From a virus: a stretch of DNA of 63,275 nt. The stretch is from the IMG/VR virus record IMGVR_UViG_3300045988_139407; one strand, given 5' to 3'. The notes under the pieces were generated by a model. That model was not told the origin of the DNA. It ran no database searches and saw only the letters and a list, made by a program, of their open reading frames with translations. Both the position numbers and the translations under genes were made by a program. Within the stretch, counting starts at the first letter, position 1. Every line of letters starts with the position of its first letter. Positions 1 to 60,616 of the stretch are shown in pieces.

Positions 1-119
1 TGCTGCACGTAATGATGAGAAGAAACTGGAGTATGAGAAGACTCTTGGTTTGGCTTCTGTGCTGGAAGGTGAGTTCCACAATGAGTTTACGCAGGAGCAT
101 CTTGAAGGCTTATACAACA
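1..119. repeat. Terminal direct repeat, identical to nt 63157-63275
   Basis: tgctgcacgtaatgatgag...cttgaaggcttatacaaca was read at both ends. The reading frame of the flanking ORF is preserved across the junction. Confidence 0.95.
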
Positions 120-3100
120 AGGCAGCCCAGAAATATAATATGGGTGAGAAATTGACAGATGAGGATAAGGCAGCGGTTTATCTTCATCAGAATGCTGGTG
201 CCATCAAGGAAATCATGGATAAGCAGCAGAAGGGTATTATCCTTACTGATGAGGAGCAGAAGCAGATTAATGCCTATCGTCATTATTATGACAGTGCTTT
301 GGAGAACAGTTCTGTGATGAGGGAGTTTGTCAACACGTTTGAGGATTCCAATGGCGTGGCGCGCGGTACACTTCGTAAGGCTTTGGAGTCGAAAGATAAG
401 AAATATGCACCTTTGGTGGAATCTTATCTTAAGGAGCTTTACAACTCCATCGAACTGAAACGTGAAATGAAGCAGACGATGGATGATCTCTATAATACTT
501 CACATGGTAATGAGCAGAAGAGGATTGAAGGCGAAAACCCGGTATCTCCTGTTGAGGGTTCTGCTGGTGGCCAGGAGCCTCCAGTTTCAGAGGGACCTGC
601 TTCGTACCAAGACCGTACCAAATCCGTACCAACTCCGAGTGATGCAGAAGTTGCTGCAAACCCTGCAAACGTTTCAAACTCTTCTGCTGAGGGTGCAAGT
701 CCTGAGACAAAGGTTGCAGGCTCTGATGCTTTTGTTATGGGACAGAATGCCTATAAGAATGGGGATTCTGAGGCTTTGCAGGCTATCGATTATAATAGTG
801 ATTTAGCTACAGGACGTTTGAAGCGTGCTTTTGCTGACAATGAGAAGATGCCTGATATTGTAGCCAATGCCTATAATGAAGGTCGAGATATGGAGCAGTT
901 TGTGGCTCAGCGTGCAAGTAGTTTGACTCCAGCACAAAAAGAGGCTATCAGTAAGTATGTAGAGGCAATGGATGCCAAGAAGGGCGCTATTGATGCTCTG
1001 CAGCATGCCGATGATGGCTATGGTGAGGCTTTGAAGGAACAGCTCTGGCCATACCAGACGGAAGACGGAAACATCATGCCAGCTACTCTGGATAGCGGAA
1101 AACAGGTATTCCTGAAGAAGGCTAACGAATATGGTGGAGCCTTTGTTGTCGTTCCAGATGAGCAGGGACAGCCTACAATTAAGCAGGTATCTAATGCCGA
1201 GATTAGAGAGGTGGGCACTCCTGTTCCTCTTGATGAATACATTGAGAGTTCTTTGGCTCAGCAGAAGGATGCAAGAAATAAGCAGTTTATCAGCCAGTTT
1301 GATGGCAGCGGTTTGAAGCCGAATGACCAGGTTACAGTTGCCATGGAGGAGGGTGATGCTAATATCAACATGACCTTTGCCGGATATAGCGAGGACGGAA
1401 AGATTGTGCTTACTGATGGTAAAGATTATCTTCCCCTGTCTAAAGAAGAGTTTGCTGCATGGCGCAAGAATGCGCTTGACAACACAATCAATGAACATTT
1501 GGATCGCGAGGACGATGAACGTGAACAGAAAGCAGTTTCTCAGGCTGAGGCTGACAAGAAGGAACGATTTGCCAAAGGCATCGTGGGATTGAGCGAGGGA
1601 CATCCTGATTATTCTTCAAAAGATACAGACGCAAAGGTGGCTGCTGAATATTTGCAGGAGCAGTATGGTGAAGACCATGGCAAACTTTTGAATCTGGTTA
1701 ATGGCAGCCGTGATGACATCAAGACTCAACTTGCCAACAAGAGGAAGGCTGCTGCTGAATATCAGAACTGGCTTGATACAAATGCCGATCTTGACCCGGA
1801 AAAGGCTAAGAAGGTGGAGGATGAGTTGAGTCTGGTTAATGAGCAGATTGCTGATCTTGATGCTCGTTTCAAGAACTGGAATACTATCCGCAACAGCGTG
1901 ATGACTCCTGATGAGGTGAAAGCAATGACGGAGGAGCGCAAGGCTGAGGTGGAGAAGGCTGGTGTTGATGAAACTGCCATCGTGCCATCTGATGATTTCC
2001 ATGTGCTCGTACTTGATGATAAGGAATTGAAGAAGCAATATCCTACTATGGATGAGGCTACCGACTATATTACCTCTCAGCGCAAGGACATCTATCATAC
2101 CCAGGAGGATGTGGAACGCAAGATAAATGGTGTGAATGACATGCTGGATCAGTATATCAATGGCGAAACAGAGCTGGACCCTAACCAACTTATGGAATTG
2201 AATACAACAAAGGCTCAGCTGGAGGCTCAGCAGTCTAATTTGTCGGTTGCAGCAAAGGGTTTGAAGGCTCAGGCTAATAAACTCAGCAAACTTTATAAAA
2301 CAGAAGTTAGCCAGCAGGAAATGGAGGAACTGGGTATGACTCCTTCTGAGCAGCGTAAGGTTCTTGCGTCTGATGCCATCAAGAAGAATGACCTTGGAGC
2401 AATAATAAAGATATACAAGGATGCCTCTGTTGATATTACGGACTTGACTCCTCAGACTCTTGAAGAGGCAGTATCAGAATATTTGAGTCCTCATAGCTTG
2501 AATCCGGAATCTCTTCAATATGAGTTGGGCAAGAGTAATTTTAAGTTTGGTATTGGCAAGGGGTATGATTCTAATAAGTTCAATTATCTTATAGCCAAGA
2601 AAGGAACCGGTATGTCGGTTAACGAATTTGCTGTGAAGGTATATAATGACCTTCCTGTAAACTTGCTGGATATGGGATATACCGACCAGGATGTTCGTAA
2701 TGCCCTTCTTGATATGTTCAAGTCTTATGACAGTGTGAAGGACATGAAAAATGTGGCTCCGATGAACCGCATAGCTGCTGCAGAAGATGAACTTTCAAGC
2801 GAGGAAGAGTTTTATGAGGCACAGAAAGAGCGAGAAATTATCGAAAGACAGGCAGAAATTGAGAAATATAAATCGTATATTCACGAAAAAGCGTTATCTT
2901 TGCCGTCTGAAAGCGAACTTGATTACATCAAAGGACTTGAATTTGACCGTATGATGGAGATTGAGGATCGTGAACGAGAGTACAAACAATATGTCAAATC
3001 AATTTTACCAGAATTAGCTGATTATGATGACAGAAGCAATGAAGAAGGATATGGAGGAGGCAGTAGCCTGGGTAGCGACTCTTCACGGAGAGGAGTTGAT

Positions 3101-6100
3101 GAAGGAAATAGCCAAGGCGAAGAAGTTGGTAACGGAGAAGCATCTTCTGAGTCCGAGATTGGAGAAGGCTCTGATAGCGGACGCAAAGGGCGACAAGAGG
3201 TTAGCAGCATGGAACCTGGCGAAGGCTCAGTTGTTCGAGGCTCACATCTACCGCAAGAAGCATCCTTCGGAGAACGTTTAAAGAGTGCCATTGCCGAGAC
3301 TGAGACCGAACCTACAGAGGCTCAGAAGAAGGCAGGAAACTATAAGAAGGGGCATTTGACTTTTGGGGGATATGACTTTACTGTTGAGACTCCAAAGGGC
3401 GTGACTCGCAGCGGTAAGGATGAGCAGGGCAAGCCTTGGAGCGTGACCATGCACGATACTTACGGCTATATTCTGGGCAAGATAGGCGTGGATGGTGACC
3501 ATATTGATATGTTCATCAATGATGCCGCAGACCTTGATACTTTTGATGGTAACGTTTATGTTGTTGACCAGGTGAACCCAGAGACTGGTGAGTTTGACGA
3601 GCATAAGGTGATGTATGGCTATCCTTCTGAGGAGGCTGCTACAGAGGCTTATCTTGCCAACTACTCCAATGGCAGGAAGGGACTTGGTAAGGTTACTTCT
3701 GTGCCTAAGGCTACCTTTGACAAGTGGCTGGAGTCTTCTGACCGCAAGACTAAGCCTTTTGCGGAGTATGCTATGGTGCAGAAGGAACAGGCAAAATTTG
3801 ATCGTGATGTGAAGGAGGTGGAGCCATCTGAAATGACGGAGGCACAGAAGGTGGCTTATGATGCCGTATCTACTATGCTTAAGAAGGCTGGCATTCCGGT
3901 GAAGGTGGTTAGCAATGAGGATATGGAGAAGGTGGCTGAGGCGCAGGATAACCTGAATCTTGCCATGCTGCTGAATCAGCCTGAAATGAGATTTAAGATC
4001 AAGACACCGGAGGAGAAGCAGGCTGCCGAGAATGCTTATAACTTTGCCAAGGAGTTGCGCCCGGATAAGTGGAAGCAGTATGCCGTGGTGGATATGAGCA
4101 ATCCTAACAAGATGCCAGAGTACTTTGAGAAGCAGGAGCTGGCTAGAAAGGAGCGTTCTTACTATAATAAGCTGATGTGGGGTAACTACAAGGTCTTCAA
4201 TCTTGACAAGAGTTTTGAGGACAATGTGGCTGGGCTTACTGGCTCTTTCCCTTCGGAGTTTGACCCATATAAGATTGACGAGCAGACCAATAAGAGGAAT
4301 GAGTTGAAGAAGCAGATGAAGGAGACTGAGGAGGCTTATAAGTCAACCGGGCAGGAACGTAAGGAGTATCAAAATCAGCTGATGAAGGAGTACATGGATG
4401 AGCATGGACTGGATTCTGAAAACGATATTCCTGATGATGTTTGGAATGATTGCAGGAATAAATCCTTTGAAAAATATCAAGATAAGCTTGATTCCTTGTT
4501 TGCGAAATATAAGGATTTGGATAGACAGTTGAAGGCTGTTGCTGAGCCGGGAGTGCAGTATTTGAAGGGTAAGGGTGTAGTTTATGGCTACACTGATGGC
4601 AAGGAGATTGTGCTGAACCAGGAACATCTGAATCCTAATACTCCTATCCATGAGTATCAACATCTTTGGCGTACTGCTGCTAAGAAAATGAATCCGGAAC
4701 TTATAGAGTATGGTGATAAACTCATCATGCAGACCCAGCTATTTGCCGATTTGAAGCAGGATCCTAACTATAATCATCTGACAGATGAGCAGATTTGCGA
4801 TGAGGCTTTTGCTCGTTTGACTGGTGAGGACGGAGCTGCCATCCTGGAACAGATGGCTAAGGATGCTATCAAGGAGAATCCGCTTGATACAGCCAAGGAA
4901 CTGAGTGTTATCAATAAGTTGAAGGAGTGGCTGAAGAAGTTCTGGTATTGGACTCTTGATACATTTACGAAGTGGAAGCCTGAGGACATTAAGAAAATGA
5001 CCTTGGAGGATATTCGCAATCTTGTGTTGAGAGACTTGGCGAATGGGGTAGACCCACGTAACGTGAAATCTCGTATGACCAAGGAAGATGCTGTTTCGCT
5101 GCGTAAACAGATGGCAGATAATGCTGAGCAAGAGCGGATTCTAGAGCATACGGAAGAGAACTGGCAGAAAGAATTTGGCAAGGATAGCCGTGTTACTACT
5201 CCTATTGGCAGTATCAAACTTGGTGAAAACCAATACAAAAAGGCAGGAAGAAACGACCGAATCAAAAGATTTGGTTTGTTGAAGCCTACCTTGGAGCGTC
5301 CTGACGTTATCTTGGAGAAGTCTGCACCAAAAGAAGGTGCGGAACGACAGACTAAATATCTATTTATCAAATCTTTTAAAAAGGCAGATGGAAATAAGAT
5401 TCTGAACTATGAATCCATAACAGTAAAGCAGGGTGAAGAGGAAGTGGCGATTAGCGCACATCAAATAGATCCTTCGAAAGTTGTGAAAGAATTGACGGAA
5501 TCAAAAGTGCTATGGAATCGTTTCAGAGGCGATTCTAATTCCTTGGGCGAGAATCAAGGTTCGGCATTAACTCCATCCGCAAATAACCCAAGCGGAAAGG
5601 ATAGCGTCCTGAATCCTCATAGCGGTGCAAAGATAAGAAATAATATCGAAACTGCCAAGGGAAATGGTGGAAATTTATCTGTGGAGGATAAAATAAAGGC
5701 TGTATCTCGGCAATTTGGTGTAGATGAGGCAGATGTGGCGATGTATGCCAATGCTATTAAGAAGGGTTCTACTGCTGAGGCTGCACGTGCCAGAGCCAAT
5801 ATCAAACGCCATCTGTTGCAGGCAAATGAAGATAAAATTTCCTCTTTAAAGGAACTTCTTAAGTACACTAAGCCTGTAAATGAAGCCTTGAAGGAGAATT
5901 TTGGCGACCTTGATGCTATGATCGAGGAGCGCGTGAAGCAGGTGGAAGCGCAGCGTAACGCCATGGAAGCCGCTAGAAAGAGAGCAGAGGAAGAGGAAGC
6001 CAAGCGCCAAAAGCACCTGGAGGAACTTTCTCTGATTCCTGATGATCAACTTGACAAGCAGTATATGGATGCTCTCGCCAAAGGTGATGATGATACTGCC

Positions 6101-9100
6101 AGGGAAATGCTTGATGAGGCTGCCAGACGCAAGGGCTATGATGATACAGAAAGTTCATATCAGGGTGTAGGCGCATGGAAAGCACCGGGAAACCCTGGAT
6201 ATGAAAGCGACAAGGCGAGACGTGATGATTGGGAATCCAGTGGCTCGGATGTGAACCTGGAGGATATGGCTTTGGGCTATACTCCTCAGCCGGATGATTA
6301 CTTCTCTCATCCGGAGCGTTATTCTCAGAACACTCCTCATGGATTGGAATCTGTGAAAGCCATCAATACGGCTATTGATGCCATTAAGAATGGCGAGAAG
6401 GATGTTAAGGTAAAGGTTTATCGTGCTGTTCCAACTTCTGTGAAAGAAGGAAAGTTGCGTAATGGTGACTGGGTTACTCCTTCTAAGAAATATGCCGATA
6501 TTCATGGAAATAATCGACTGGAAGGCAAATATCGTATCATCGAGGATGAAGTGCCTGCTACTCAACTGTGGTGGGATGGTAATGACGCAAACGAGTTTGG
6601 CTTTGATGATGGCAAGGAGTATAAATACAAGAATGCCAAGAACAACAGAAAGTTGAACGACCTTGTTACCTATGATGATAAGGGTGATGTTATTCCTCCT
6701 TCTAAGCGCTTCAATTCTCGCAAGAGCGATATTCGATTCCATCGAGTGACTGAGCCGGAGGAACTGGAGAGGCTGAATAAGGAGAAGACTTTCCGGATGT
6801 ATAGCGGAATGCAGGAGGTGGATGGTAAGCTCTACTCGCCTATGGCTGCCATTATTGACGGAAAGCGTACTGATGCTACCGAGATTGGTGCCTGGATGGG
6901 GGCTGATGAGAGACCTGATCTTGTGAAGGGTGGAAAGTTCCAACTTGTGAAGACCGACAAGAACCCTGGGGCAGGAGAAGGGCCAGTGCGTGCTGCCTAC
7001 AATCCTTATATGCATACTTCCACTTCGATGATGAACGACCAGTTTACCGGGGCTTATGCCAGAGGTAATATCAAGGTTGTGGAATGGGAGATTCCGGAAA
7101 GCGAGAAGACAAGCGGCTACCGTGCTGAGGGTGCAAAGGATGCCGTGGGACTTGTGCCTTGGCATTCGGGTTCCGTAAATGGTTTGTTGCCGAAGGACAG
7201 ACAGAGGTCGGTGATGTTGTCTCGTTGGAGAAAGGCGGTGAGAGTAGTTCCTGATTCTGAGGTGGCTGAGAGTATTGCTGAGCAGCTGGAGGGTACTGGA
7301 CTGGCTATTCCTTGGAACGTGGTTACTCCTAACCAGGTGAGGGAGTTGGTTAAACTGGGTGTGCCTATTACTACCGTTGAGTCGGGACTGCAGGCTCCTG
7401 AGACTAAGGAGAAGTTTATGGCTCAGATGGAGGAGTTGAAGAAGGAGTTTCCGCAGGCTCAGTTCGTTGACGTGAAAATGACCAAGGACGCTTATAAGGA
7501 GTGGGGAATTTTGAAATTCTCTCTTGGTGAGAAGAATGGCACAGATGTTGCTGATGAAAATGGTGATAGTATGAACAAAAATCCAAATAAAAATGTTATC
7601 ACCAGAAGAATTGGAAGCCGAGCACAGGCGCAAGCAAGAGTTAATGAAACGTTGGGAGCAGCAGCCGCTGACTTTCGAAGAGATCAAACAGCAGCAGCTA
7701 AGAATCAACAAGGCACTTGGGATAGAGGATCCGTACTTGGGCATGTCATTCGAGCAGCTAAGGCAAATGCATCTTTCATCCCTCAAGAAGAACTCAAAAA
7801 AATAGTCGGTGAAACTATTGGCCATGGAGAAGAGAACTATGTTTATCATGCAAAATATGATAATCAGAAGGTTATCAAACTCAATGATTTCACCATGACG
7901 GACAATCTTTTCCGCATCAATGAGTTTATTGACCGCATCAATGCTCATAATGAGTTCATGCCAGAGGATAAATATACGCCTTTGGGGTTTGCCTATAATC
8001 ATAAAGGAGACCCATGTATAGTGATGGAGCAGCCTTATTTGAAGGGTACTCAACCAACAAGAGAAGAAATCTGTCAGTACTTGATGGATCATGGCTTTAA
8101 GTTGGATATGATTCAGATTAGTGCAGATGAATCTGATATAGGCTGGTCAAATGGCAAGTTTGATTTATGGGATGCTGAGCCTAGAAATGTAATCAAGGAT
8201 GAGAACGGAGATTTGCACTTCTTTGACACTATGATTCAGCATACTTATATCCCTAATCATAAAAATCAACTCCGGTTGTCGAAACCTTCTATCCGTACTT
8301 TTGAATCACAAGGAATGATGGATTCAGCAGCAAGGGTACAGAGAGTGGCAAACGTATTGGGCGGTGCTGAGGCTGTGACCTATGCTTCAAGCGCTGATGT
8401 GCCAGAAGAGTATCGCATTGCTATAGAGCAGGGCGCTAGGGGATGGTATGACCCTACAACGCACACTGTGCATGTTTATCTGCCTAACTGTGCTGATGCC
8501 AACGAGGCGGAGAGAACGGTGCTGCATGAGAAGATAGGCCATGAGGGCATGGAGGTGCTGCTGGGTGGCGAAGATGAGGTGAGAAAATTCGCTAACTTCG
8601 TTTATCGTTCCGTAGGTAAGGATATTCGAGGCAAGATTATAGACTTTGCCAATAAATATGATCCGGACTGGAAGAACCCTGACCGCATGAATGTGGGAAC
8701 GCAGGAGTATATCGCCCGACTGGCTGAGGAGGGTCCTAAGACTGCTGAGGACTTTTCTCTTTGGACCAAGATTAAGCATTATCTTATCAAGGTGCTTAAG
8801 AAGCTGGGTGTTCGTGTGCCGGGACTTCTCAATGACAAGGATTTGAGATACTACCTGATGAAGGCTGGAAAGGCTCTACATGTATGGGACAATATGCCTA
8901 AGGAGAAGCAGGAAGCCATGATGAAGCAGGCTAGCAATGCTGAAATCAAGGATGCGCTATCTGATGGCGCTGGTAAGGGTAAACCACGCCAGAAGAAGGG
9001 CGAAAGCACAATTCAATACATGAAACGTGTACAGGAGTGGCGCAAGTGGAAGAATGCACGTGAGGATGAGAATGACCCAGAGCCTCCTATGTTCTACGAC

Positions 9101-12100
9101 ATCGACAAGGATGAGGAAGGCAAGAAGGAATGGGCACAGCTCAATAAGGACTGGCGTGAGCGACACCATCTTGCAAGCGAGGAGCCTATGGGGATGCCTA
9201 TCCGTATGGAGGGCGAAGAGGATGGCGCCTACATGACTCGTATTCACGAATATGAGAAATGGAAGGATGCCATGAAGGACCAGGAAGACCCTATGCCTGA
9301 TATGTTTGCCTTCGAAAAGAAGAAGCAGGAGGAGGTGAAACGCAAGTATGAGGACTGGTTGGCCAGACATGAGCTTCTGGAGCAGCAGCAAGCAGATTTG
9401 GACTTGTATGAGGGTAAGATTTATCCGACAGAGACCAATCCGAAGGCTGATGCACTGGAGCAGCAGGTGATGCAGGACTTGGCCGAGGTGACCAGTACGG
9501 ACGTGAGCAAGGAAGGTGCAGCAAAGACCGTGAAGCATGCGGTTATCCATCGTAGAAAGAATATGGAGGAGGCCAGTGCAGACGATGCCATCTATATCAA
9601 TGATGTGAAGAACAGAATCGAGAAGATGGCAGATAGCGGTGCTTTCGACAAGTTGCTTTCTGACTACAAGGGCAAGCCGAACCGGGCAGAAAAGCTGGCT
9701 GAGGCTATACCTTATATAATAGAGGCTCCTAGACGTTTGCGTGACCTGGCGAATGATTTGAATGCCACTGGTGCTTTTGACAAGGGACATATCCATATCC
9801 AGCCAACTGATGTAGAGGCTATCCAGCCTTTCGTGGCAGACTTGATTGCTCAGACTGGAAAGAGGCATACCGAACTGAAAGATGGCAAGGAGGTGGAGGT
9901 TTATGATGATCCGCAGGCTGTGAGTGAGGTGGCCAGCAAGATGGCACAGACCATCAATGCCAATCATCAGGGTGAGGAAGGTTTTGTACCTATTGATGGT
10001 TCAGATATTCTGAGCGAGCATGTATTGCCACTGGTGAAGCAGCAGATTGTGCCTGAGGGTATCGATTACAAGAATCTCTCGCCTGAAATGAAGGCTTCCA
10101 TTGATTCTATCAGATACTGGTATAACTATACCTACGACTGGTTGAAGGATAATCACACCTTAAGAGAGGACACCGGATATAATGCCGACTATGTAAACCA
10201 TATCTGGGATAAGGAGAAGAGTGACAAGCAGGCTTATGCGATGTATGTGGAGAACAGACAGCGCACAAAAAGCCCTAACGAGAAGCCGAGAACCATCAGT
10301 ACCCTGATGGAGGGTATCAGCGTGGGACTTGTACCTAAGACTACCGACATCACGAAGATGATGGCTTACTACAGCAGAAGCAATATCGAGGCTTGGGTTA
10401 ACAAAACCATGCTGCAGGAGTTGAGCGGATTGAACGTGATAGAGCGGAATGAGGACGGAGAAATCATTTCTTCTGACCCACTGCTTTCTTCTACGCCTCC
10501 TTTTAACCTGGAGCAATATAAGTACTTTGAGATTCCGGGTTTGGGTCCTGTATGGGTCTATAAAGGAAATGCAAAGGATTATACTATACCAAATATCATC
10601 ACAGGTAAAAAAATCCTTCTTTATCGCCAGAAAAGTGCTGCTAAACGATTTGGTGTTGTATTTGAACAATATGAAAGTTCACCATTTTGGGAAACCGTTG
10701 ACACTTTGGCTTCAAGTGCCAAGAAACTGGAGTTGGGTTTTAGTGGTTTCCATGCTGGCGCATTGACGGAGGTTTATATGGTACAGAATATGGTGGAGTT
10801 TGGTCCTAAGAAGGCCATGGCCAACTTTATGAAGTATATCTTTGTAGATACAGCCAAAAACCATGAACTACCTTGCTTTGCCAATCCTGAGGATTTTCAA
10901 GAGGCTGCTAGCCATCTGGTGAAGTTCGGAGCGACCAACGACTATGCAGCAGCGGATGTACAGAACATGTTTGACAACATGCGCGATGCGATGATAAAGG
11001 TGCAGAAGAAGTTGAAGGACGGAAATAAAATTTCCGGAACGGTGGCTTTGGCTACTATGCCATTGAAGGTGGCAACGCAGATGCTTTCGCTCATCAACAA
11101 GGGCATGGATAGAGCCTTGTGGGATTTCCTTCATGACGGACTGAAACTTGCTACCTATCGTATGAGGGCAGACAAGACCAAGGAGCGTGCCAAGGAGAAG
11201 GGATGGACTGAGGAGGAACTGAGCCGGGCTTTGGACGAGGACGGACAGTTTGTGAACGATATGTTTGGCGGTCAGCACTGGGATGTATTGGGAGCCAGCC
11301 ATCGAACTTTGCGTTATGCCGGAAGAGTTCTTCTTTCACCAGACTGGAATGCTTCTACCACACGTCACTTCCTGGCATTAACCGGATATGGTTCTATATG
11401 GAATGAGGCCACCTTTGAAAACTTCAAACAGTATTACAAGAGGCTCAAACATAAGGAACTTATACCGGAGGATGAAGGCAGAAGAAGCAGACAGATTTCG
11501 GCTTTGCTCTGTTATGGTATCGGATTCATGGTATTTTATGAGGGTATTGCCAATGGCATCAATGCTGCTTTCCGTGCCTTGGACGAGGAGAAGGAGCGCA
11601 AAAAGGCTGAGGAGATCAGGAAGACCAACCCAAGCTATAAGAGTATGTATGAACTTGCTTATCCTGATGGTATGAAGTGGTATGACTATCTGATGCGTGG
11701 AAATAGCCTTGGTCAACAGAGCAAGATCTTTATGGGCAGATATGCGGACGGAACGGAAATGTATATCAGACATGGTAAGCAGTTCCGTGAGGTTCCTGAA
11801 TACCTCTTCAACCATAAGGGTGAACTGGAGTTCCCTGGACCTATGGTACAGCGAATGATAGGTAAGGCTAACCCTATGGTGAGAATGACCTTGGATGACA
11901 TAAACTATCTGAGCGATTTCCAAGCCAGCCATGCGGATCAGGAGATTCAGCGCAAGTATGGCAAGACCATCGGACTGCTTTATAAGGATGCTTTGTACTG
12001 GGCGCCTTTCCTGATTCCTAGTCAGGAGAATAAGGAGTTCAAGGCTGTGGATTTCTTCTTCCCATCATCGAAGGGATTCTCTCCATGGAAGGCTCAGAGC

Positions 12101-12757
12101 TACTTCAAGGACTTTATCCTTAGCGGTGACATGGAGGGCGTGGTGATGACTTATCAGAGCTGCCAACGCAACGGTATTGATGCTGAGGCTCAGATTAAGG
12201 CTGCCATCGGCAGTGTGAAGGCACTGGAGAGTGCAGAAATGAATGATGGCGTGACTTCGCTGCAGGTGGCTTGCAAGCGCTTTGATGCTGCCAAGAGTAT
12301 CACGGAAAAGAAGAAGATGCGCCAGAAGATGAAGAAATTCCTCTCGCAGAGTGATTACAAGGCTTTCACCCAGAAGGAGGCTCTGGACATGGTGCAGGGT
12401 TATCTGAACGGTGATGAAGACTTGAAGGAAATGGAGAAGGCTGAAAGCAAGTACCTGATGAAGGCTAAGGCAGAGGACGTGACGGAGGACTGGAGAATAC
12501 AGAACGTCTGGAACGGAACCATGGAGACTTATCAGGAGTATCAGCGCTTGAAGGATGTTGATAAGGCGAAGGCAAATGCCTTTAAGAACAGCAAGACCAA
12601 CAAACGGCTGTTTGCGGCTAGAAAGGCTATCTCTGCTGCAAGAAGAAAGATGAATAAGGCTAAGAAGCAAATGGATGGTACAAACGATGCTGCCAAACTG
12701 GTAGAGATTCGGAATACCAGAAAGGAGCTGCTTGAAAAGCTGAACGGAATGGAGTAG
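1..12757 (+). CDS. 3' part of the giant ORF; the whole gene (60617..63156 + 1..12757) is 15,297 nt / 5,098 aa; polyvalent virion/ejection protein candidate
   Basis: The frame is open from nt 2 (codons GCT GCA CGT = ..AAR, the same residues read at 63158 onward) to TAG 12755-12757. The track ORF 50..12757 only starts at an internal TTG. Multiple enzyme-like motifs are listed separately. Confidence 0.85.
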   Translation, partial: AARNDEKKLEYEKTLGLASVLEGEFHNEFTQEHLEGLYNKAAQKYNMGEKLTDEDKAAVYLHQNAGAIKEIMDKQQKGIILTDEEQKQINAYRHYYDSALENSSVMREFVNTFEDSNGVARGTLRKALESKDKKYAPLVESYLKELYNSIELKREMKQTMDDLYNTSHGNEQKRIEGENPVSPVEGSAGGQEPPVSEGPASYQDRTKSVPTPSDAEVAANPANVSNSSAEGASPETKVAGSDAFVMGQNAYKNGDSEALQAIDYNSDLATGRLKRAFADNEKMPDIVANAYNEGRDMEQFVAQRASSLTPAQKEAISKYVEAMDAKKGAIDALQHADDGYGEALKEQLWPYQTEDGNIMPATLDSGKQVFLKKANEYGGAFVVVPDEQGQPTIKQVSNAEIREVGTPVPLDEYIESSLAQQKDARNKQFISQFDGSGLKPNDQVTVAMEEGDANINMTFAGYSEDGKIVLTDGKDYLPLSKEEFAAWRKNALDNTINEHLDREDDEREQKAVSQAEADKKERFAKGIVGLSEGHPDYSSKDTDAKVAAEYLQEQYGEDHGKLLNLVNGSRDDIKTQLANKRKAAAEYQNWLDTNADLDPEKAKKVEDELSLVNEQIADLDARFKNWNTIRNSVMTPDEVKAMTEERKAEVEKAGVDETAIVPSDDFHVLVLDDKELKKQYPTMDEATDYITSQRKDIYHTQEDVERKINGVNDMLDQYINGETELDPNQLMELNTTKAQLEAQQSNLSVAAKGLKAQANKLSKLYKTEVSQQEMEELGMTPSEQRKVLASDAIKKNDLGAIIKIYKDASVDITDLTPQTLEEAVSEYLSPHSLNPESLQYELGKSNFKFGIGKGYDSNKFNYLIAKKGTGMSVNEFAVKVYNDLPVNLLDMGYTDQDVRNALLDMFKSYDSVKDMKNVAPMNRIAAAEDELSSEEEFYEAQKEREIIERQAEIEKYKSYIHEKALSLPSESELDYIKGLEFDRMMEIEDREREYKQYVKSILPELADYDDRSNEEGYGGGSSLGSDSSRRGVDEGNSQGEEVGNGEASSESEIGEGSDSGRKGRQEVSSMEPGEGSVVRGSHLPQEASFGERLKSAIAETETEPTEAQKKAGNYKKGHLTFGGYDFTVETPKGVTRSGKDEQGKPWSVTMHDTYGYILGKIGVDGDHIDMFINDAADLDTFDGNVYVVDQVNPETGEFDEHKVMYGYPSEEAATEAYLANYSNGRKGLGKVTSVPKATFDKWLESSDRKTKPFAEYAMVQKEQAKFDRDVKEVEPSEMTEAQKVAYDAVSTMLKKAGIPVKVVSNEDMEKVAEAQDNLNLAMLLNQPEMRFKIKTPEEKQAAENAYNFAKELRPDKWKQYAVVDMSNPNKMPEYFEKQELARKERSYYNKLMWGNYKVFNLDKSFEDNVAGLTGSFPSEFDPYKIDEQTNKRNELKKQMKETEEAYKSTGQERKEYQNQLMKEYMDEHGLDSENDIPDDVWNDCRNKSFEKYQDKLDSLFAKYKDLDRQLKAVAEPGVQYLKGKGVVYGYTDGKEIVLNQEHLNPNTPIHEYQHLWRTAAKKMNPELIEYGDKLIMQTQLFADLKQDPNYNHLTDEQICDEAFARLTGEDGAAILEQMAKDAIKENPLDTAKELSVINKLKEWLKKFWYWTLDTFTKWKPEDIKKMTLEDIRNLVLRDLANGVDPRNVKSRMTKEDAVSLRKQMADNAEQERILEHTEENWQKEFGKDSRVTTPIGSIKLGENQYKKAGRNDRIKRFGLLKPTLERPDVILEKSAPKEGAERQTKYLFIKSFKKADGNKILNYESITVKQGEEEVAISAHQIDPSKVVKELTESKVLWNRFRGDSNSLGENQGSALTPSANNPSGKDSVLNPHSGAKIRNNIETAKGNGGNLSVEDKIKAVSRQFGVDEADVAMYANAIKKGSTAEAARARANIKRHLLQANEDKISSLKELLKYTKPVNEALKENFGDLDAMIEERVKQVEAQRNAMEAARKRAEEEEAKRQKHLEELSLIPDDQLDKQYMDALAKGDDDTAREMLDEAARRKGYDDTESSYQGVGAWKAPGNPGYESDKARRDDWESSGSDVNLEDMALGYTPQPDDYFSHPERYSQNTPHGLESVKAINTAIDAIKNGEKDVKVKVYRAVPTSVKEGKLRNGDWVTPSKKYADIHGNNRLEGKYRIIEDEVPATQLWWDGNDANEFGFDDGKEYKYKNAKNNRKLNDLVTYDDKGDVIPPSKRFNSRKSDIRFHRVTEPEELERLNKEKTFRMYSGMQEVDGKLYSPMAAIIDGKRTDATEIGAWMGADERPDLVKGGKFQLVKTDKNPGAGEGPVRAAYNPYMHTSTSMMNDQFTGAYARGNIKVVEWEIPESEKTSGYRAEGAKDAVGLVPWHSGSVNGLLPKDRQRSVMLSRWRKAVRVVPDSEVAESIAEQLEGTGLAIPWNVVTPNQVRELVKLGVPITTVESGLQAPETKEKFMAQMEELKKEFPQAQFVDVKMTKDAYKEWGILKFSLGEKNGTDVADENGDSMNKNPNKNVITRRIGSRAQAQARVNETLGAAAADFRRDQTAAAKNQQGTWDRGSVLGHVIRAAKANASFIPQEELKKIVGETIGHGEENYVYHAKYDNQKVIKLNDFTMTDNLFRINEFIDRINAHNEFMPEDKYTPLGFAYNHKGDPCIVMEQPYLKGTQPTREEICQYLMDHGFKLDMIQISADESDIGWSNGKFDLWDAEPRNVIKDENGDLHFFDTMIQHTYIPNHKNQLRLSKPSIRTFESQGMMDSAARVQRVANVLGGAEAVTYASSADVPEEYRIAIEQGARGWYDPTTHTVHVYLPNCADANEAERTVLHEKIGHEGMEVLLGGEDEVRKFANFVYRSVGKDIRGKIIDFANKYDPDWKNPDRMNVGTQEYIARLAEEGPKTAEDFSLWTKIKHYLIKVLKKLGVRVPGLLNDKDLRYYLMKAGKALHVWDNMPKEKQEAMMKQASNAEIKDALSDGAGKGKPRQKKGESTIQYMKRVQEWRKWKNAREDENDPEPPMFYDIDKDEEGKKEWAQLNKDWRERHHLASEEPMGMPIRMEGEEDGAYMTRIHEYEKWKDAMKDQEDPMPDMFAFEKKKQEEVKRKYEDWLARHELLEQQQADLDLYEGKIYPTETNPKADALEQQVMQDLAEVTSTDVSKEGAAKTVKHAVIHRRKNMEEASADDAIYINDVKNRIEKMADSGAFDKLLSDYKGKPNRAEKLAEAIPYIIEAPRRLRDLANDLNATGAFDKGHIHIQPTDVEAIQPFVADLIAQTGKRHTELKDGKEVEVYDDPQAVSEVASKMAQTINANHQGEEGFVPIDGSDILSEHVLPLVKQQIVPEGIDYKNLSPEMKASIDSIRYWYNYTYDWLKDNHTLREDTGYNADYVNHIWDKEKSDKQAYAMYVENRQRTKSPNEKPRTISTLMEGISVGLVPKTTDITKMMAYYSRSNIEAWVNKTMLQELSGLNVIERNEDGEIISSDPLLSSTPPFNLEQYKYFEIPGLGPVWVYKGNAKDYTIPNIITGKKILLYRQKSAAKRFGVVFEQYESSPFWETVDTLASSAKKLELGFSGFHAGALTEVYMVQNMVEFGPKKAMANFMKYIFVDTAKNHELPCFANPEDFQEAASHLVKFGATNDYAAADVQNMFDNMRDAMIKVQKKLKDGNKISGTVALATMPLKVATQMLSLINKGMDRALWDFLHDGLKLATYRMRADKTKERAKEKGWTEEELSRALDEDGQFVNDMFGGQHWDVLGASHRTLRYAGRVLLSPDWNASTTRHFLALTGYGSIWNEATFENFKQYYKRLKHKELIPEDEGRRSRQISALLCYGIGFMVFYEGIANGINAAFRALDEEKERKKAEEIRKTNPSYKSMYELAYPDGMKWYDYLMRGNSLGQQSKIFMGRYADGTEMYIRHGKQFREVPEYLFNHKGELEFPGPMVQRMIGKANPMVRMTLDDINYLSDFQASHADQEIQRKYGKTIGLLYKDALYWAPFLIPSQENKEFKAVDFFFPSSKGFSPWKAQSYFKDFILSGDMEGVVMTYQSCQRNGIDAEAQIKAAIGSVKALESAEMNDGVTSLQVACKRFDAAKSITEKKKMRQKMKKFLSQSDYKAFTQKEALDMVQGYLNGDEDLKEMEKAESKYLMKAKAEDVTEDWRIQNVWNGTMETYQEYQRLKDVDKAKANAFKNSKTNKRLFAARKAISAARRKMNKAKKQMDGTNDAAKLVEIRNTRKELLEKLNGME
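3335..3670 (+). other. Inorganic-pyrophosphatase-like domain inside the giant ORF
   Basis: GNYKKGHLTFGGYDFTVETPKGVTRSGKDEQGKPWSVTMHDTYGYILGKIGVDGDHIDMFI...DEHKVMYGY parallels the family I PPase core (EIPKG..NKYE ... YGFIP.T...DGDP.DVLV ... D.K.I). Confidence 0.45.
4550..4690 (+). other. Zincin-like metallopeptidase motif region (HEYQH) inside the giant ORF
   Basis: GVVYGYTDGKEIVLNQEHLNPNTPIHEYQHLWRTAAKK. The HExxH motif is at nt 4649-4663. Confidence 0.45.
6419..6550 (+). other. Possible ADP-ribosyltransferase-like R-S-ExE triad inside the giant ORF
   Basis: VYRAV (Arg codon 6422-6424), WVTPS (Ser codon 6482-6484) and IIEDEV (E-D-E 6542-6550). The Arg-to-Ser spacing is shorter than in classical ARTs. 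Confidence 0.3.
7790..8260 (+). other. Protein-kinase-like domain inside the giant ORF
   Basis: Gly-rich loop plus Lys (IGHGEENYVYHAKYDNQKVIKL). Catalytic-loop-like DAEPRNVIKDENGDLHFFDT (D..P.N at 8171 onward; the D of the DFG-equivalent FFD at 8225-8227). Confidence 0.55.
8441..8600 (+). other. Second metal-binding-like motif region (HEKIGH, HExxxH) inside the giant ORF
   Basis: GWYDPTTHTVHVYLPNCADANEAERTVLHEKIGHEGMEVLLGG. HEKIGHE is at nt 8525-8545. Confidence 0.35.
9035..9376 (+). repeat. Two protein-level repeats of about 45 aa inside the giant ORF
   Basis: EWRKWKNAREDENDPEPPMFYDID...KDWRERHHL (9035-9172) versus EYEKWKDAMKDQEDPMPDMFAFEK...EDWLARHEL (9245-9376). Confidence 0.7.
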
Positions 12758-12805: not shown

Positions 12806-12839
12806 AAAAAGGGACTTGCTTCACAGCGAGTCCCTTTTT
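12806..12839. terminator. Bidirectional rho-independent terminator between convergent genes
   Basis: AAAAAGGGACT-(12 nt)-AGTCCCTTTTT: A-run, 6-bp GC-rich stem and T-run, so it can serve both strands. Confidence 0.75.
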
Positions 12840-12930: not shown

Positions 12931-13404
12931 TTATCCGAGAGAAGTACCAGATGCTTTATCTGGTTCATTTTTTGGTGTTGCCCAGCGTATGTAATCAGCC
13001 ATGCTGTCATCCATGCGCTGCTGCTCACTCTTCGGATTCTCCTTCTTTTCCTTTCCCCAAAGGCGTCTGGCAATATCATCCAAACACCACTGCCAATCGT
13101 CTCGAAGAGTGATGACCTTGGAACTTGGCATGATGGTGACATCTGCCTTTGGTGGGTCAACATGCTTGGTGTTGCCATCCTTATCGGTCTCCTCCTTGGT
13201 ACTGAGAGAGGCGAAAGGCACGTTATTGTCGTTAAGGAACTTCTCCACATCCTCCTTCTTGTTGTCGCAGAGAAGAATGCAGACGGAAACCTTATTTTTC
13301 TTCAAGGTGGTGAGGGCTTCTTTCGCCTTGCCTACCATGGAGAGGTTGCCTTTATCATCTTTAGTAATGACGCAAGCTTCATGTACATTGATTGATTTAC
13401 CCAT
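12931..13404 (-). CDS. Hypothetical protein, 157 aa, single reverse-oriented gene
   Basis: ATG at 13404. Balanced composition (MGKSINVHEACVITKDDKGNLSMVGKAKEALTTLKK...). The three other ORFs overlapping it look like frame shadows. Confidence 0.6.
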   Translation of the reverse strand: MGKSINVHEACVITKDDKGNLSMVGKAKEALTTLKKNKVSVCILLCDNKKEDVEKFLNDNNVPFASLSTKEETDKDGNTKHVDPPKADVTIMPSSKVITLRDDWQWCLDDIARRLWGKEKKENPKSEQQRMDDSMADYIRWATPKNEPDKASGTSLG

Positions 13405-13469: not shown

Positions 13470-13517
13470 AAGTTGCGCAACTTATCACTAATAAGCGAGA
13501 AAAATGCGGTATTTTTG
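13470..13517 (+). promoter_or_regulatory. Late-type promoter: AAGTTGCGCAACTTATCAC + 21 nt + TATTTTTG
   Basis: 19-mer at 13470-13488 and -7 box (TAnnTTTG) at 13510-13517, 17 nt before the portal ATG. Confidence 0.65.
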
Positions 13518-13534: not shown

Positions 13535-15586
13535 ATGGTTGACAATCATGTAATAAATGACATATCGAACTATGCAGAGCCGGGACCAGACTCACTTGAA
13601 GGAGTGAGCCGGGAGCGGTTTACGCAGAGCGAAAGCAATCTTCGGTTGCTGCAATGGGCTTGCCAATACTTCTATGATGGTGCAGAACTGAGAAAGAAGT
13701 GGAAGCGAGCGCAAGACTTCGTGATGGGAAGACAGTTGGAAGAGCTGATAGAATGGAACGGAAGAAAGATTACCATCCGGCAGTATATGGAACTGAAAGG
13801 TATGCCAATACTGGAATACGATGTAATCGGAGACAAACTTCTTTCGCTCGTTGGTCTTGTGCGCCAGCAGCGAAGTACTGCGACATGTAGTGCCGTGGAT
13901 CCAAACGAGGAAGACTATATCAGTTTCTTCAATGAGTATCTTCGTCAGAACGACAACTTGAACGACAGGCAAGAGTTAGATGCAAGAATGTTTTACGCCT
14001 TCTGCTGCTTTGCCTTTATAGGCATGAAAACCTATTATGGCAGAAGGGATGGCAAGAATGGTATCTTTGACTATTCTGTAGACATCTTTAAGTTAGCTTT
14101 ACCACCTTTCTTTAAGTATGACCTGAGCGATGTGGAATTTATTGCTGAGGCTCATGATTTGACTTGGCGAGAGATTATTGCTACCTTTACAAATGGAAGC
14201 AAGGAAGAGGCTAATAAACTCAGTGAGATCTATCTACAGACGCAGCACCATTTTGCGCCCGAACAGACTTATCACCCGACTGGTGAAGCCCAGTATGCCG
14301 GAATAGATGATTTCACCCATTCTTCAGTAGTAGGCAAGTACCGGGTATTGGAAATCTGGACAAAAGAAACCAGACCAGCCATTTGGGTTCATGACTGGGA
14401 GAGTGGAGATTGCGGCTATGCTTCTCCTGACCAGCGAGCCTTCTATGAGGAAAAGAAGCGCAAGATAGAGGAATCCAACATCATGAAAGATGAAAATGGC
14501 CTACCTGTGCTCGATGAGAATGGTGAGCCTATCTACTATGTGGACCCTTCTGAACTTAAGACCATCGAAATTAAGGATGAGGCTGAAACCTACTGGTTCA
14601 GAAGATATATCACACCGAATGGCTATCTGCTGGATGCCAGGGAATCACCATACTATGTGCTCAGGGACGGATTCAGAACCTCTATCCATCCATACACCTT
14701 CGTTGCCTATCCATGCTTGAATGGCGAGGTAAGAAGTTTTACGATGCGAGCCGAGAACAACCAGCGCACCTTGAACCATTATATGATGATGATCAACTTC
14801 ATTGTAGCGAATGGTGCCAAGGGAACGATGCTTGTGGACGAGAACGCATTGAGCGAGAAACAGAGCATCGATGAAATGCAGGTGAACTATACCAAAACAG
14901 ATAGTATTATCTTGTGGAACTCGAAGAATGGAGGTAAACCACCTCAGACACTGGTCAACAAGAGTATTCCGGCAGGTGTTGACTTCATGGTGAACTTTGC
15001 CAAGACGATGGCAAGCGAGGGAAGTGGTGTGCAGGGTGCTCTTCAAGGACAGCACCGGAATACCAGCGGTAAGCAATATCAGTTGGAAAGAGAATCATCA
15101 TCTACCACCATACAGGACTTTGTTGAGAGTTTCAACAACTTTAAGGTACGTGTGGCCAAGAAGAAACTTTACCTGATACAGGAATTTTGTACCGATGCTG
15201 ACAGCGTGAAACTGACAGGTGATGAATTTGAAATTCACTTCAATTCTGAGACCATGAGGGATATGGATTTAGATGTTTCTATCGATTTGGATGCATACAG
15301 TCCACTTATCAGAGCTGCCAACAACGATATGGCTTGGCAGATGATGGTGAGCGGCAAGATGGATCCATATACGATGCTTACGGTAGCTAACTTCCCTGGT
15401 ACAGGAAGAATGAGGAAATACTTCAAGGAGCAATTGGAAAAATTAGAAGCTCTTCAGGCACAGCAAGCAGCCAATGGGCAGATGCCTTCTGACGGAGGAC
15501 AGCAGACTGCAGCACCAGATACGCACCTGAAGGATTCCAGTGATGGAGCAAATGATTTGGCAGCTCTTCCTTCGGCAGCTATGTAG
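13535..15586 (+). CDS. Portal protein candidate, 683 aa
   Basis: Size and position (first gene behind a late promoter, adjacent to the terminase operon). No specific motif was recognised by eye. Confidence 0.55.
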   Translation: MVDNHVINDISNYAEPGPDSLEGVSRERFTQSESNLRLLQWACQYFYDGAELRKKWKRAQDFVMGRQLEELIEWNGRKITIRQYMELKGMPILEYDVIGDKLLSLVGLVRQQRSTATCSAVDPNEEDYISFFNEYLRQNDNLNDRQELDARMFYAFCCFAFIGMKTYYGRRDGKNGIFDYSVDIFKLALPPFFKYDLSDVEFIAEAHDLTWREIIATFTNGSKEEANKLSEIYLQTQHHFAPEQTYHPTGEAQYAGIDDFTHSSVVGKYRVLEIWTKETRPAIWVHDWESGDCGYASPDQRAFYEEKKRKIEESNIMKDENGLPVLDENGEPIYYVDPSELKTIEIKDEAETYWFRRYITPNGYLLDARESPYYVLRDGFRTSIHPYTFVAYPCLNGEVRSFTMRAENNQRTLNHYMMMINFIVANGAKGTMLVDENALSEKQSIDEMQVNYTKTDSIILWNSKNGGKPPQTLVNKSIPAGVDFMVNFAKTMASEGSGVQGALQGQHRNTSGKQYQLERESSSTTIQDFVESFNNFKVRVAKKKLYLIQEFCTDADSVKLTGDEFEIHFNSETMRDMDLDVSIDLDAYSPLIRAANNDMAWQMMVSGKMDPYTMLTVANFPGTGRMRKYFKEQLEKLEALQAQQAANGQMPSDGGQQTAAPDTHLKDSSDGANDLAALPSAAM

Positions 15587-27200: not shown

Positions 27201-27453
27201 CCTTGCTGAGAGATACAAGCGTGAGAATGGTGATTATGCAACACTTGAAACTCCAGTAGTCTATAATGGAACTACCTATAAGAAGGATAATCCTGCATAC
27301 AGACGTGCAAAGTTTACAATGGAGACAAGTACATACCTGAGACTTGATAGTGCGATATTCTATTTCAACTTCTGTCAGTGGATTATCGGTATGGATTCCA
27401 TGGACAAAAACATGAGTTTAGCATTTGATTCAATAACTTGGAATGAAGAATAA
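24226..27453 (+). CDS. Large tail/host-interaction protein, 1,075 aa
   Basis: Size, beta-rich N/T/S/G composition, and position upstream of the fibre gene. Confidence 0.5.
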   Translation: MATEKIDKEIPDINTDWGGYLGKWVQKLIKDNLISLKDGKFGYIDQEVVPEGNNSHIYWRFFSDENSYREWYNDKDKYADNVKQSYDFVTAKAELQYILRTSMVKRPNDVIVKGTECVATINYNSYYGEPSEKDETSGTLVVSVNGVDIPELKQTLEASGTATGNNYNVDLTNYLVSETNTVKITVANTHGQSRTFSFSIRTVSINLSFDASYVETAVRDGKWSLRVNCQGANATVYCKVSNGNGSETMTKTINNSSGEFVIDSKGTYLAGKHEIEVWAVNSEYGITTDKIRTSYIKKGNTPAIAIGKDAPVSATQYSTIQVPYYFYLPDNEIGSQVAIEIKVLYNNNTEELVLTDQLCTVDDNHTSGETPLKATVPLDLNDYAPKISVVISVGEVTATHDVTIKGAGVTLQPVSECKVYYSMKGKTNSDKGIENLESYYEGVRTSYLERSANFKLNAYNGFLDGKGMTIGAGKHVTLKDWQPFAENFGVSGNRKGRAIEIEFETGICSDENAVIVDCMDETTGFRIYANRIEVKCSTDSVMTYYPETKRMKFSLSIDGTTTHTVNNLGGGDATEKDVNLAYLCLNGVCVRMFDYSNANWKQGTPKDIVIGSDMAQVILYSIRGYEKSINPYQALDNFAYDTPDVNDVYDSNGIFDHYGKINLAKRNDILNSSGNIHNPDEIISYEKVKKALPQSPIIVWNIDNLPYNKNNDDVPINGTTFENPLWNKATDGWAQAPFTVGAHMFNADGTSSNGYPLPYKNFAEIFETGNGDSVNIVVGLVGETENHTLYSITIGVETGEKEMVHKVNFASSEGIFNIHAMNMYQQILLACAKGNESLYTAYQKEQADLGKAVTYRKSLSGFPEIGFRRTSTSGTAAPTFLSIYNFINNKYSASFLGFPAKDYMKAQIWEIDENVNMFNQEAGDYSVDGDSLQSSVLTGIPLYYARVPKKSPVNKSNKLGVAKKTTDNIDAANQELAVIKRFHNWVVSTNVLLAERYKRENGDYATLETPVVYNGTTYKKDNPAYRRAKFTMETSTYLRLDSAIFYFNFCQWIIGMDSMDKNMSLAFDSITWNEE

Positions 27454-27455
27454 TT

Positions 27456-58716: not shown

Positions 58717-58764
58717 AAGTTGCGGAACTTATCACAGATAGGTAAGAAAAACGCATTACTTTTG
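58717..58764 (+). promoter_or_regulatory. Late-type promoter: AAGTTGCGGAACTTATCAC + 21 nt + TACTTTTG
   Basis: 19-mer at 58717-58735 and box at 58757-58764, 27 nt before the ATG at 58792. Confidence 0.6.
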
Positions 58765-60584: not shown

Positions 60585-60616
60585 CTTATTATTAATCAAA
60601 AAAATTAAGATAAGGT

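Follow-up and report, generated by a model that had tools for sequence, protein, structure and literature searches.

A 5,098-residue polyvalent protein, probably a large ejectosome protein with exchangeable effectors, encoded across the contig junction of a temperate Segatella copri phage

Polyvalent proteins were described as giant chains in which many unrelated enzyme domains are combined (Iyer, Burroughs, Anand, de Souza & Aravind 2017, J Bacteriol; PMC5512222). Zincin-like peptidases, with HEXXH or HEXXXH motifs, are the commonest hub domain of these proteins, though not an obligatory one (PMC5512222). In passages of the same paper, packaging and injection are predicted for the polyvalent proteins of phages, fusions of InPase domains to portals are reported, and some members are suggested to target incoming elements. 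Here we analyze the IMG/VR virus record IMGVR_UViG_3300045988_139407, a stretch of 63,275 nucleotides (nt) that is referred to below as the window. One of its genes encodes a protein of 5,098 amino acids (aa) that shares this construction, with many unrelated enzyme domains in a single giant chain. Our preferred reading, which we regard as probable, is that the gene is genuine, belongs to a temperate, podovirus-like Segatella copri phage, and encodes a polyvalent protein, likely the large ejectosome protein, with exchangeable effectors.

The ejection proteins of podoviruses are the other described systems closest to this locus. In phage N4, gp52 (150 aa), gp51 (644 aa), and gp50 (3,500 aa) form a conserved ejection operon (PMC13434306). 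The two smaller proteins build the outer-membrane and periplasmic sections of a channel, and only then does the giant gp50, a chain of the beads-on-a-string type, leave the capsid as the last of the three (PMC13434306). According to a passage of PMC5512222, the C-terminal ~1,400 aa of gp50, including a zincin-like module, are required for encapsidation. Phage T7 has three consecutive structural-module genes of rising size, gp14, gp15, and gp16 (196, 747, and 1,318 aa), whose products are ejected to bridge the envelope (role as cited in PMC13434306). DarB and DdrB of phage P1 are large head-packaged antirestriction proteins that are injected with the DNA to protect it. The defining features of P1 DarB-like antirestriction proteins are DNA methyltransferase and helicase modules. 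DdrB, with a peptidase module at its C-terminus, undergoes processing, as stated in a passage of PMC5512222.

The first 119 nt of the window exactly match its last 119 nt, nt 63157–63275 duplicating nt 1–119, and the genome is therefore a circle of 63,156 bp. The giant open reading frame (ORF) starts with ATG at 60617, just after an in-frame TAA at 60611–60613, and is free of stop codons to the end of the window (60617–63275, plus strand, aa 1–886). Position 1 is a third codon position; therefore, frame 2 carries the ORF on from there (1–12757, plus strand, aa 847–5098 and the stop codon), and the first stop beyond the junction is TAG at 12755–12757. The joined ORF has 15,297 nt including the stop, contains no internal stop, and occupies 24.2% of the genome. 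A preliminary description of the window, made from the sequence alone, had already reported an ORF of 5,098 codons wrapping the junction, and every coordinate was found to be right when the frame, the overlap, and the stop were recomputed.

Homologues were searched for with three queries of ~1,000 aa from the giant protein. The species-representative genomes were scanned with its C-terminal module, which gave 23 loci, and 12 of these were inspected for an open frame. The giant frame was open through the entire 10-kb upstream flank, corresponding to at least 4,100–4,600 aa, in 10 of the 12; in the other two, L010 and L013, both truncated, it was open over all the sequence present. Identities among the 12 loci range from 90% down to 30%. 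They include two S. copri metagenome-assembled genomes (MAGs) at ~90% identity, the complete chromosome of S. copri strain G8 (L011; prophage at ~3.12–3.14 Mb of NZ_CP146523), which is 85% identical in the C-terminal module, and MAGs of Prevotellaceae, Bacteroides, Bacteroidaceae, and Paludibacteraceae at 30–43% identity, all with the frame open. P0084, a homologue of 5,569 aa from another assembly, is collinear with the window protein, the contig junction included, and both P0084 and the 94% identical relative L001 are collinear with it over the junction region, aa 763–960. The L001 gene is split by an indel of 1 nt (L001:9900–10010), located ~90 nt ahead of the HEKIGHE codons, into pieces of at least 4,132 aa and 1,403 aa. 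A distant relative, L002, has two ORFs of 3,288 and 1,798 aa with a 4-nt overlap (L002:78–15337). These splits could be sequencing errors, natural two-gene versions, or cases of frameshifting. Stop-codon recoding or introns had been considered for L002, where few upstream genes were called, and they were ruled out by the plain ORF of 3,288 aa. An upper length limit in the relatives, suggested by first matches that were all 1,833 aa or shorter, was also rejected; the short ones are truncated fragments or cluster representatives. The giant ORF is one real gene.

Three Pfam domains of polyvalent proteins score above their curated cut-offs in this ORF. The polyvalent-type family I pyrophosphatase InPase (PF18823; aa ~1953–2091, 3317–3733, plus strand) was found with an E value of 2.2e-50 and 170.5 bits (cut-off 26.8), and it carries DGDHID and TVETPKG motifs. 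PBECR2, a predicted barnase/EndoU/colicin-E5/RelE-like RNase (PF18810; aa ~2569–2684, 5165–5512, plus strand), gave an E value of 1.4e-6 with a marginal score, 28.9 bits against a cut-off of 27.1. Kinase-PolyVal (PF18762; aa ~3430–3593, 7748–8239, plus strand) was found with an E value of 1.2e-18 and 68 bits (cut-off 27). Pyrophosphatase, RNase-like, and protein kinase domains are combined in one polypeptide, and a polyvalent protein is expected to join at least two disparate activities. The preliminary description had proposed a polyvalent layout with a PPase-like and a kinase-like domain; both domains were recovered by Pfam (E 2e-50 and 1e-18), and the three domains together bear the layout out, but PBECR2 and the swappable cassette slots described below had been overlooked. 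An extra Pfam scan of ten sub-segments at E ≤ 10 gave no further credible domain, and NCBIfam gave nothing. The InPase region also matched phrog_10089, labelled 'DarB-like', and nine other PHROGs. The only match in the PDB sequence and profile searches was that of InPase to the C-terminus of a portal, 9b41_L (E 2e-17). InPase domains are recurrently fused to portal or head proteins, and the solved portal PDB 9b41 is one of these fusions.

Two modules with metallopeptidase-like motifs lie on either side of most of these domains. The HEXXH module (aa 2365–2535, 4553–5065, plus strand) has HEYQH at aa 2397–2401, and its two histidines, its glutamate, and a downstream glutamate do not vary among 8 homologues with identities as low as 25%. 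It occurs in 62% of the family giants. The HEXXXH module (aa 3623–3800, 8327–8860, plus strand), defined like the former by motif and alignment, has HEKIGH at aa 3689–3694 and forms the start of the conserved C-terminal region. Its H, E, H, and G are invariant, as is an E farther downstream, and this holds as well for the giant proteins BS-TP4 gp3 and BF1-TP2 gp68 of cultured Bacteroides phages. Some family giants have two or three such modules. Judged from these motifs, the former is a candidate zincin-like peptidase and the latter a candidate variant of the same type. Alignment of the two modules with each other and with the N4 module by hhalign was not significant, though the motif context is similar, and the alignment of the HEXXXH module with the C-terminus of N4 gp50 was not significant either.

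Between PBECR2 and the kinase lie two conserved domains of unknown function. One (aa ~2907–3093, 6179–6739, plus strand) matches phrog_2579 (E 8e-20) and has the motif series YR...WVTPS...IIExE...WWDGND...KNNRKL. The other (aa ~3100–3340, 6758–7480, plus strand) was delimited by alignment and by an AlphaFold2 (AF2) model, and has PM, DExPxL, YNPYxH, NxQF, RPNxV, SGYxA, and LSRW as family invariants; it occurs in 45–48% of the family giants. The AF2 model of the region aa ~2907–3340, made from an alignment of 27 sequences, has a mean predicted local distance difference test (pLDDT) score of 73, with ~75–90 for the former domain and 80–97 for the latter. In Foldseek searches, this model gave no significant PDB match. 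It matched 18 BFVD entries, nearly all of them uncharacterized phage proteins; one entry that matches aa ~2907–3093, at E 1e-8, is named 'Large polyvalent protein associated domain-containing protein'.

An R-S-ExE set, probably that of this part of the chain, had been read as a possible ADP-ribosyltransferase (ART). The letters are present in the window protein, but they vary within the family. In aa 3100–3340, the positions of the FR, TSTS, and EWE of the window protein vary freely among the homologues, and in aa 2960–3090, only YR, PS, and the first glutamate of IIExE are conserved among the ART-like letters. A recurring weak Foldseek match to the ART domain of ExoS reached E 0.33–2.8 with a probability of at most 0.15, and BFVD entries named 'ADP ribosyltransferase' matched at E 0.1–0.5. 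The Pfam model ART-PolyVal (PF18760) does not match the window protein, and it matches cassettes of relatives. With the R, S-T-S, and E-x-E letters differing from homologue to homologue, the ART reading is not supported.

The C-terminal core (aa 4200–5098, 10058–12754, plus strand) is mostly helical and defines the family. No match to it was found in Pfam, PHROG, NCBIfam, or the PDB. The AF2 model of aa 4100–5098 has a pLDDT of 57, and Foldseek returned a single significant match, to an unnamed giant viral protein; the rest were non-significant matches to tape-measure-like helical proteins. When 1.84 billion cluster representatives were searched with a profile, the module was detected in 1,341 clusters at E ≤ 1e-3 and in 282 at E ≤ 1e-30, and among the representatives listed, nearly all have it at, or within ~100 aa of, their C-terminus. 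Part of the module (query aa ~144–814) was also seen at 25–27% identity in L019–L028, which are MAGs labelled Gastranaerophilales/Melainabacteria and rumen bins labelled 'Bacterium'. Unless these bins are contaminated, the module extends beyond the phages of Bacteroidota. Neither megablast of the giant gene nor tblastn of the C-terminal module against the phage collection gave a match.

Two short internal duplications were observed in the chain. An N-terminal pair of ~23-aa motifs, YFYNEFKNNGYEVGSYDDFKKDL and WYYNEAKNMGYDVGTQADFDKMV, lies at aa 8–60 (60638–60796), and the same pattern is seen again in P0084, although its N-terminus is otherwise different. Residues 3840–3898 and 3911–3966 (8978–9358) form a tandem repeat of ~60 aa with many W, K, E, and D residues (E 6e-9). 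Internal repeats were considered as recombination sites and rejected, since just these two short duplications (aa 8–60 and aa 3840–3966) exist.

The window protein was compared with 38 proteins of 4,000–7,483 aa, most of which are cluster representatives carrying the C-terminal module. Residues 400–2100 are covered by 46–68% of these giants, and residues 4200–5098 by 92–100%, the latter by selection. Coverage of aa 2100–3600 is mostly 7–30%, and that of the kinase slot is 7–10%. The giant protein consists of three parts. A conserved N-terminal backbone (aa ~200–2100) ends in InPase. A central exchangeable array (aa ~2100–3620) holds the HEXXH module, PBECR2, the two conserved unknown domains, and the protein kinase. 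The conserved C-terminal region (aa 3623–5098) comprises the HEXXXH module and the unmodelled helical core of ~900 aa. When the homologues are mapped on the window protein, sharp module borders appear near aa 2162, 2365, 2535, 2740–2760, 3093, 3350, and 3623, and cassettes are replaced at fixed borders, at about aa 2162/2365, 3093, 3350, and 3623. The kinase slot (aa ~3350–3622, nt 7508–8326) is occupied by a C5-methylase in P0002, P0008, P0011, and P0084, by ART-PolyVal and LPD3 in P0036, and by something unrecognized in other relatives. Its GC content is 39.6%, compared with 45–48% in the rest of the giant gene. This low GC content and the presence of the kinase cassette in only 7–10% of the giants fit a recent acquisition. 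Other polyvalent-type domains found in relatives are ART-PolyVal, LPD3, LPD13, LPD14, LPD23, PBECR3/5, MuF_C, and a nucleotidyltransferase. The largest member, P0096 (L029:6001–28452), has 7,483 aa; its 22.4-kb gene fills 34% of a contig of 65.8 kb, and the protein carries InPase, PBECR5, and MuF_C domains. The gene order of this contig matches that of the window, with an integrase gene, a 167-aa gene, a 357-aa gene, and the giant gene.

Compared with the polyvalent proteins described in PMC5512222, the window protein has InPase, PBECR2, kinase, and HEXXH and HEXXXH modules in common, as well as its occurrence in a phage of the portal-terminase type and the domain shuffling among relatives. 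With 5,098 aa in a family of 4,100–7,483 aa, it stands at the upper end of this class. The N-terminal backbone of ~2,100 aa and the C-terminal core of ~900 aa, both without a Pfam model, are unlike the described proteins, and the searched part of the text of PMC5512222 mentions neither the fixed layout of a chassis with slots nor its link to a three-gene cassette. The giant protein is not categorically new, because this kind was described in 2017. Its layout, which had been presented as unusual, is usual in its family, which comprises at least 1,341 protein clusters and of which the window protein is a typical member, and cultured Bacteroides phages have analogous genes, such as that of BS-TP4 gp3. 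The family itself, with its unmodelled ends, internal slots, lengths of up to 7,483 aa, and abundance in Bacteroidales phages, appears to be undescribed in the searchable literature.

The giant gene is the last of three genes on the plus strand, which encode 167, 424, and 5,098 aa. A promoter-like box, TACTTTTG (58757–58764, plus strand), of the Bacteroidota −7 type (TAnnTTTG) lies 28 nt upstream of the first gene. TAnnTTTG is not enriched in the window (60 found and 48 expected); therefore, the box is merely consistent with a promoter. The first gene (58792–59295, plus strand) encodes a 167-aa protein with Gly-zipper-like hydrophobic ends (MGLIGSIAGGLTSAVGGALAA...), which is a candidate small ejection or membrane-pore protein. 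It is 38% identical to BF1-TP2 gp70, found at the corresponding position, and the L029 contig also has a 167-aa gene there. The second gene (59310–60584, plus strand) encodes a basic 424-aa protein, a candidate mid-size ejection protein, with BS-TP4 gp2 (393 aa), BF1-TP2 gp69 (441 aa), and the 357-aa protein of L029 as positional counterparts. Three tandem PPSRRG(R)GGSKV repeats make its C-terminus (60500–60584) strongly basic. The operon is closed by an intrinsic terminator with a hairpin and a U-run (12806–12839, plus strand); the hairpin has a free energy (dG) of −22.6 kcal/mol and a z score of −5.9, and none of 200 shuffled sequences folds equally well. The next plus-strand gene is that of a P22-type portal (13535–15586; Pfam PF16510, E 1e-31), which has its own TATTTTTG box at 13510. 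Translation and Pfam bear out the gene order read earlier, with two small Gly-rich or basic proteins upstream and the portal downstream. Between the terminator and the portal gene, the minus strand carries a 157-aa gene (12931–13404).

The large terminase TerL (16300–18486, minus strand) and an SU10-type major capsid protein (20393–21958) were identified by profile searches, and a tyrosine integrase gene is also present. The portal, terminase, and capsid genes place the giant gene in a portal-terminase packaging context. Because of these portal, TerL, capsid, and integrase genes and the prophage copies in S. copri genomes, the window is assigned to a podovirus-like, temperate phage whose host is Segatella (Prevotella) copri.

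The nearest cultured phages, found through the portal only, are the temperate Bacteroides phages BF1-TP2, BKO1-TP3, and BS-TP4, whose portals are 27–30% identical to that of the window. BS-TP4 gp3 (GenBank PQ571277) has 5,391 aa, lies directly upstream of the portal, and is preceded by genes of 80 and 393 aa. BF1-TP2 gp68 (GenBank PQ571263) has 3,633 aa and is preceded by genes of 441 and 182 aa. Both resemble the window locus, with two small genes followed by a giant one and a portal adjoining or nearby, and the cassette of small, medium, and giant genes recurs in BS-TP4, BF1-TP2, and L029. Their giant proteins are 37–49% identical to the window protein in InPase and 30–34% identical in the HEXXXH module, whereas BLAST found no similarity in the C-terminal core. 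Both are annotated as 'hypothetical protein', and the giant genes are not mentioned in PMC12694917.

The position of the giant gene is that of ejected-protein loci in podoviruses, as had been proposed: it is the third gene of a small, medium, and giant cassette by the portal, as in N4 and T7, within the structural region and in one unit from promoter-like box to terminator. The label 'virion/ejection protein' is drawn from this genomic context. The order of a small membrane protein, a mid-size protein, and a giant multi-domain protein is shared with gp52, gp51, and gp50 of N4 (Schitoviridae; PMC13434306, PMC11445570). N4 gp50 and the window protein both have loosely linked domains, an HEXXH module of zincin-like appearance, and a long C-terminal region, and both phages are of the podovirus type. 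Unlike gp50, the window protein has no RNA polymerase domain, and no RNA polymerase family was found in Pfam, NCBIfam, PHROG, or PDB searches of it. The window phage also differs from N4 in that it is temperate, has a Bacteroidota host, and would carry an exchangeable effector set as cargo. T7 gp14, gp15, and gp16 show the same rise in size, but gp16 is four times smaller than the window protein, its only enzyme is a transglycosylase, and no similarity to it was detected. The DarB profile, phrog_10089, is the best PHROG match, yet the match spans just positions 874–1178 of 4647, that is, the InPase region and its flank, and unlike DarB, the giant ORF contains no methylase or helicase domain that Pfam could match.

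In the proposed mechanism, the giant gene would be transcribed late, as the third gene of the operon of the 167-aa, 424-aa, and giant proteins by the portal. A few copies may be packed in the head, where the chain would be loosely folded, like 'beads on a string'. As with N4 gp50 and T7 gp16, the protein would be expelled through the tail once the two smaller proteins have left, either before the DNA or together with it, and encapsidation and passage would be the task of the conserved ends. Within minutes of the start of infection, the central enzymes could then target host defence, nucleotide signalling, RNA, or proteins. Separate effectors may be released when the two zincin-like modules cut the chain, and recombination at the module borders may swap effectors between related phages. 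Packaging, ejection, self-processing, and the targets of the enzymes are all inferred.

Several observations weigh against an ejectosome role. The head would have to accommodate a protein of ~565 kDa in addition to 63 kb of DNA. In hhalign comparisons of four backbone segments with N4 gp50 and gp51 and T7 gp15 and gp16, the probability was below 1%. This homology test is weak for gp50 and gp16, because known ejection proteins are themselves divergent; the homologous proteins of N4 and DEV are less than 10% identical (PMC13434306). The 167-aa and 424-aa proteins have no PHROG or Pfam match. Pfam MPTase-PolyVal matches neither HEX module; therefore, the candidate peptidase assignment is taken from the two HEx(3-4)H motifs noted in the preliminary description, which are present and invariant. 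The hydrophobic segments in the last ~1,000 aa, which had suggested membrane insertion, do exist, but this idea is weak because just one of them, aa 4679–4697, reaches a Kyte-Doolittle mean of 1.6 and is hydrophobic enough for a membrane helix. Finally, the gene is in two pieces in L001 and L002; therefore, a single chain is not obligatory.

The long ORF might instead be an artefact, produced by misassembly at the 119-nt junction or by the fusion of neighbouring genes through sequencing errors. It does span the contig junction, its close relative L001 has the gene-splitting indel of 1 nt, and the distant relative L002 has two overlapping ORFs. However, P0084 and L001 are collinear with it through aa 763–960, the frame is open over at least 12.5 kb in the 12 other assemblies examined (two of them truncated, one a finished chromosome), 38 representatives have 4,000–7,483 aa, and the cultured phage BS-TP4 has a counterpart of 5,391 aa. 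An artefact is extremely improbable and already close to refuted. The product could also be a polyprotein precursor, self-cut by the two zincin-like modules before or during assembly into at least eight proteins, only some of which would enter the virion, as with P1 DdrB, while the others would act in the producing cell. The two invariant HEXXH and HEXXXH modules that flank the variable array agree with such a precursor, as do the two or three HEXXXH modules of some family giants, and the relatives with a gene in two pieces suggest that the pieces can work separately. On the other hand, no profile or structure match confirms a peptidase fold, the cleavage sites are not known, and the virion RNA polymerase of N4, which has such a module, is packaged unprocessed according to a passage of PMC5512222. 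We consider a polyprotein unlikely, and it overlaps the ejectosome reading rather than excluding it.

It is also conceivable, but in our view distinctly improbable, that the protein is not packaged at all and that the gene lies next to the head genes by chance. The product would then be a cytoplasmic multi-enzyme protein for anti-defence or host takeover, or a superinfection-exclusion factor, of the infected or lysogenic cell. The PDB and hhalign searches found no homology to known virion or ejection proteins, the enzyme domains could work from inside the cell, and incoming elements may be the targets of some polyvalent proteins, as Iyer et al. point out. A virion role is argued for, however, by the three-gene operon, which keeps its place beside the portal and terminase genes across relatives whose portals are only 27–30% identical. 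The repeated fusion of InPase domains to portal or head proteins and the MuF_C domain of a family member also stand against a cytoplasmic protein, and a soluble enzyme would hardly be expected to have a conserved non-enzymatic C-terminal module of 900–1,500 aa. The reading of the giant protein as probably the large ejectosome protein is retained.

Some further genes of the window were noted. A stand-alone C5 cytosine methylase is encoded at 49694–51073 on the minus strand (Pfam E 2e-41). It was considered as the source of the methylase cassette of the relatives and rejected, since the two are unrelated. Large genes of 1,075, 886, and 977 aa (24226–30116, plus strand; 37697–40630, minus strand) have no Pfam domain, and their matches are limited to PHROGs of unknown function (phrog_14959 and phrog_32516) or are lacking. 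They are probably genes of tail or receptor-binding proteins and of a replication or accessory protein.

A broader view of the family can be offered tentatively, as a possibility on which we would not yet rely. The giants may be a dedicated effector-delivery chassis of Bacteroidales podophages. Their ends would be a new encapsidation and translocation apparatus, an ejectosome large subunit unrelated in sequence to T7 gp16 and N4 gp50, and the slots at aa ~2100–3620 would hold a recombination-driven arsenal of injected anti-defence proteins, tuned to the defences of each Segatella or Bacteroides strain. This arsenal would include the kinase, C5-methylase, ART, RNases, and nucleotidyltransferase. 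Bacterial polymorphic toxins are a functional analogy, with a conserved delivery chassis and enzyme cassettes that are exchanged rapidly at fixed junctions. In those toxins, however, the variable part is the C-terminal tip, whereas here it is internal, and delivery would be through the phage tail; a contrast with polymorphic toxins is also noted by Iyer et al. in a passage of PMC5512222.

Few bacteria of the human gut are as abundant or as intensively studied as Segatella copri, and next to nothing is known of how its phages begin an infection. The relatives BS-TP4 and BF1-TP2 are cultured, and a close prophage is present in the sequenced strain S. copri G8; therefore, packaging, processing, and ejection are directly testable. 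The conserved C-terminal module, found in 1,341 clusters and without a Pfam, PHROG, or PDB model, is a large unexplained piece of phage biology. The swappable central slots provide a list of candidate enzymes for anti-defence and host takeover, and they mark where new effector domains may lie. The family, with members of up to 7,483 aa that take 24–34% of the genome, points to a heavy investment in injected proteins. If the giants are indeed effector-delivery proteins, a quarter to a third of the genome in a temperate phage would be spent on one injected protein.

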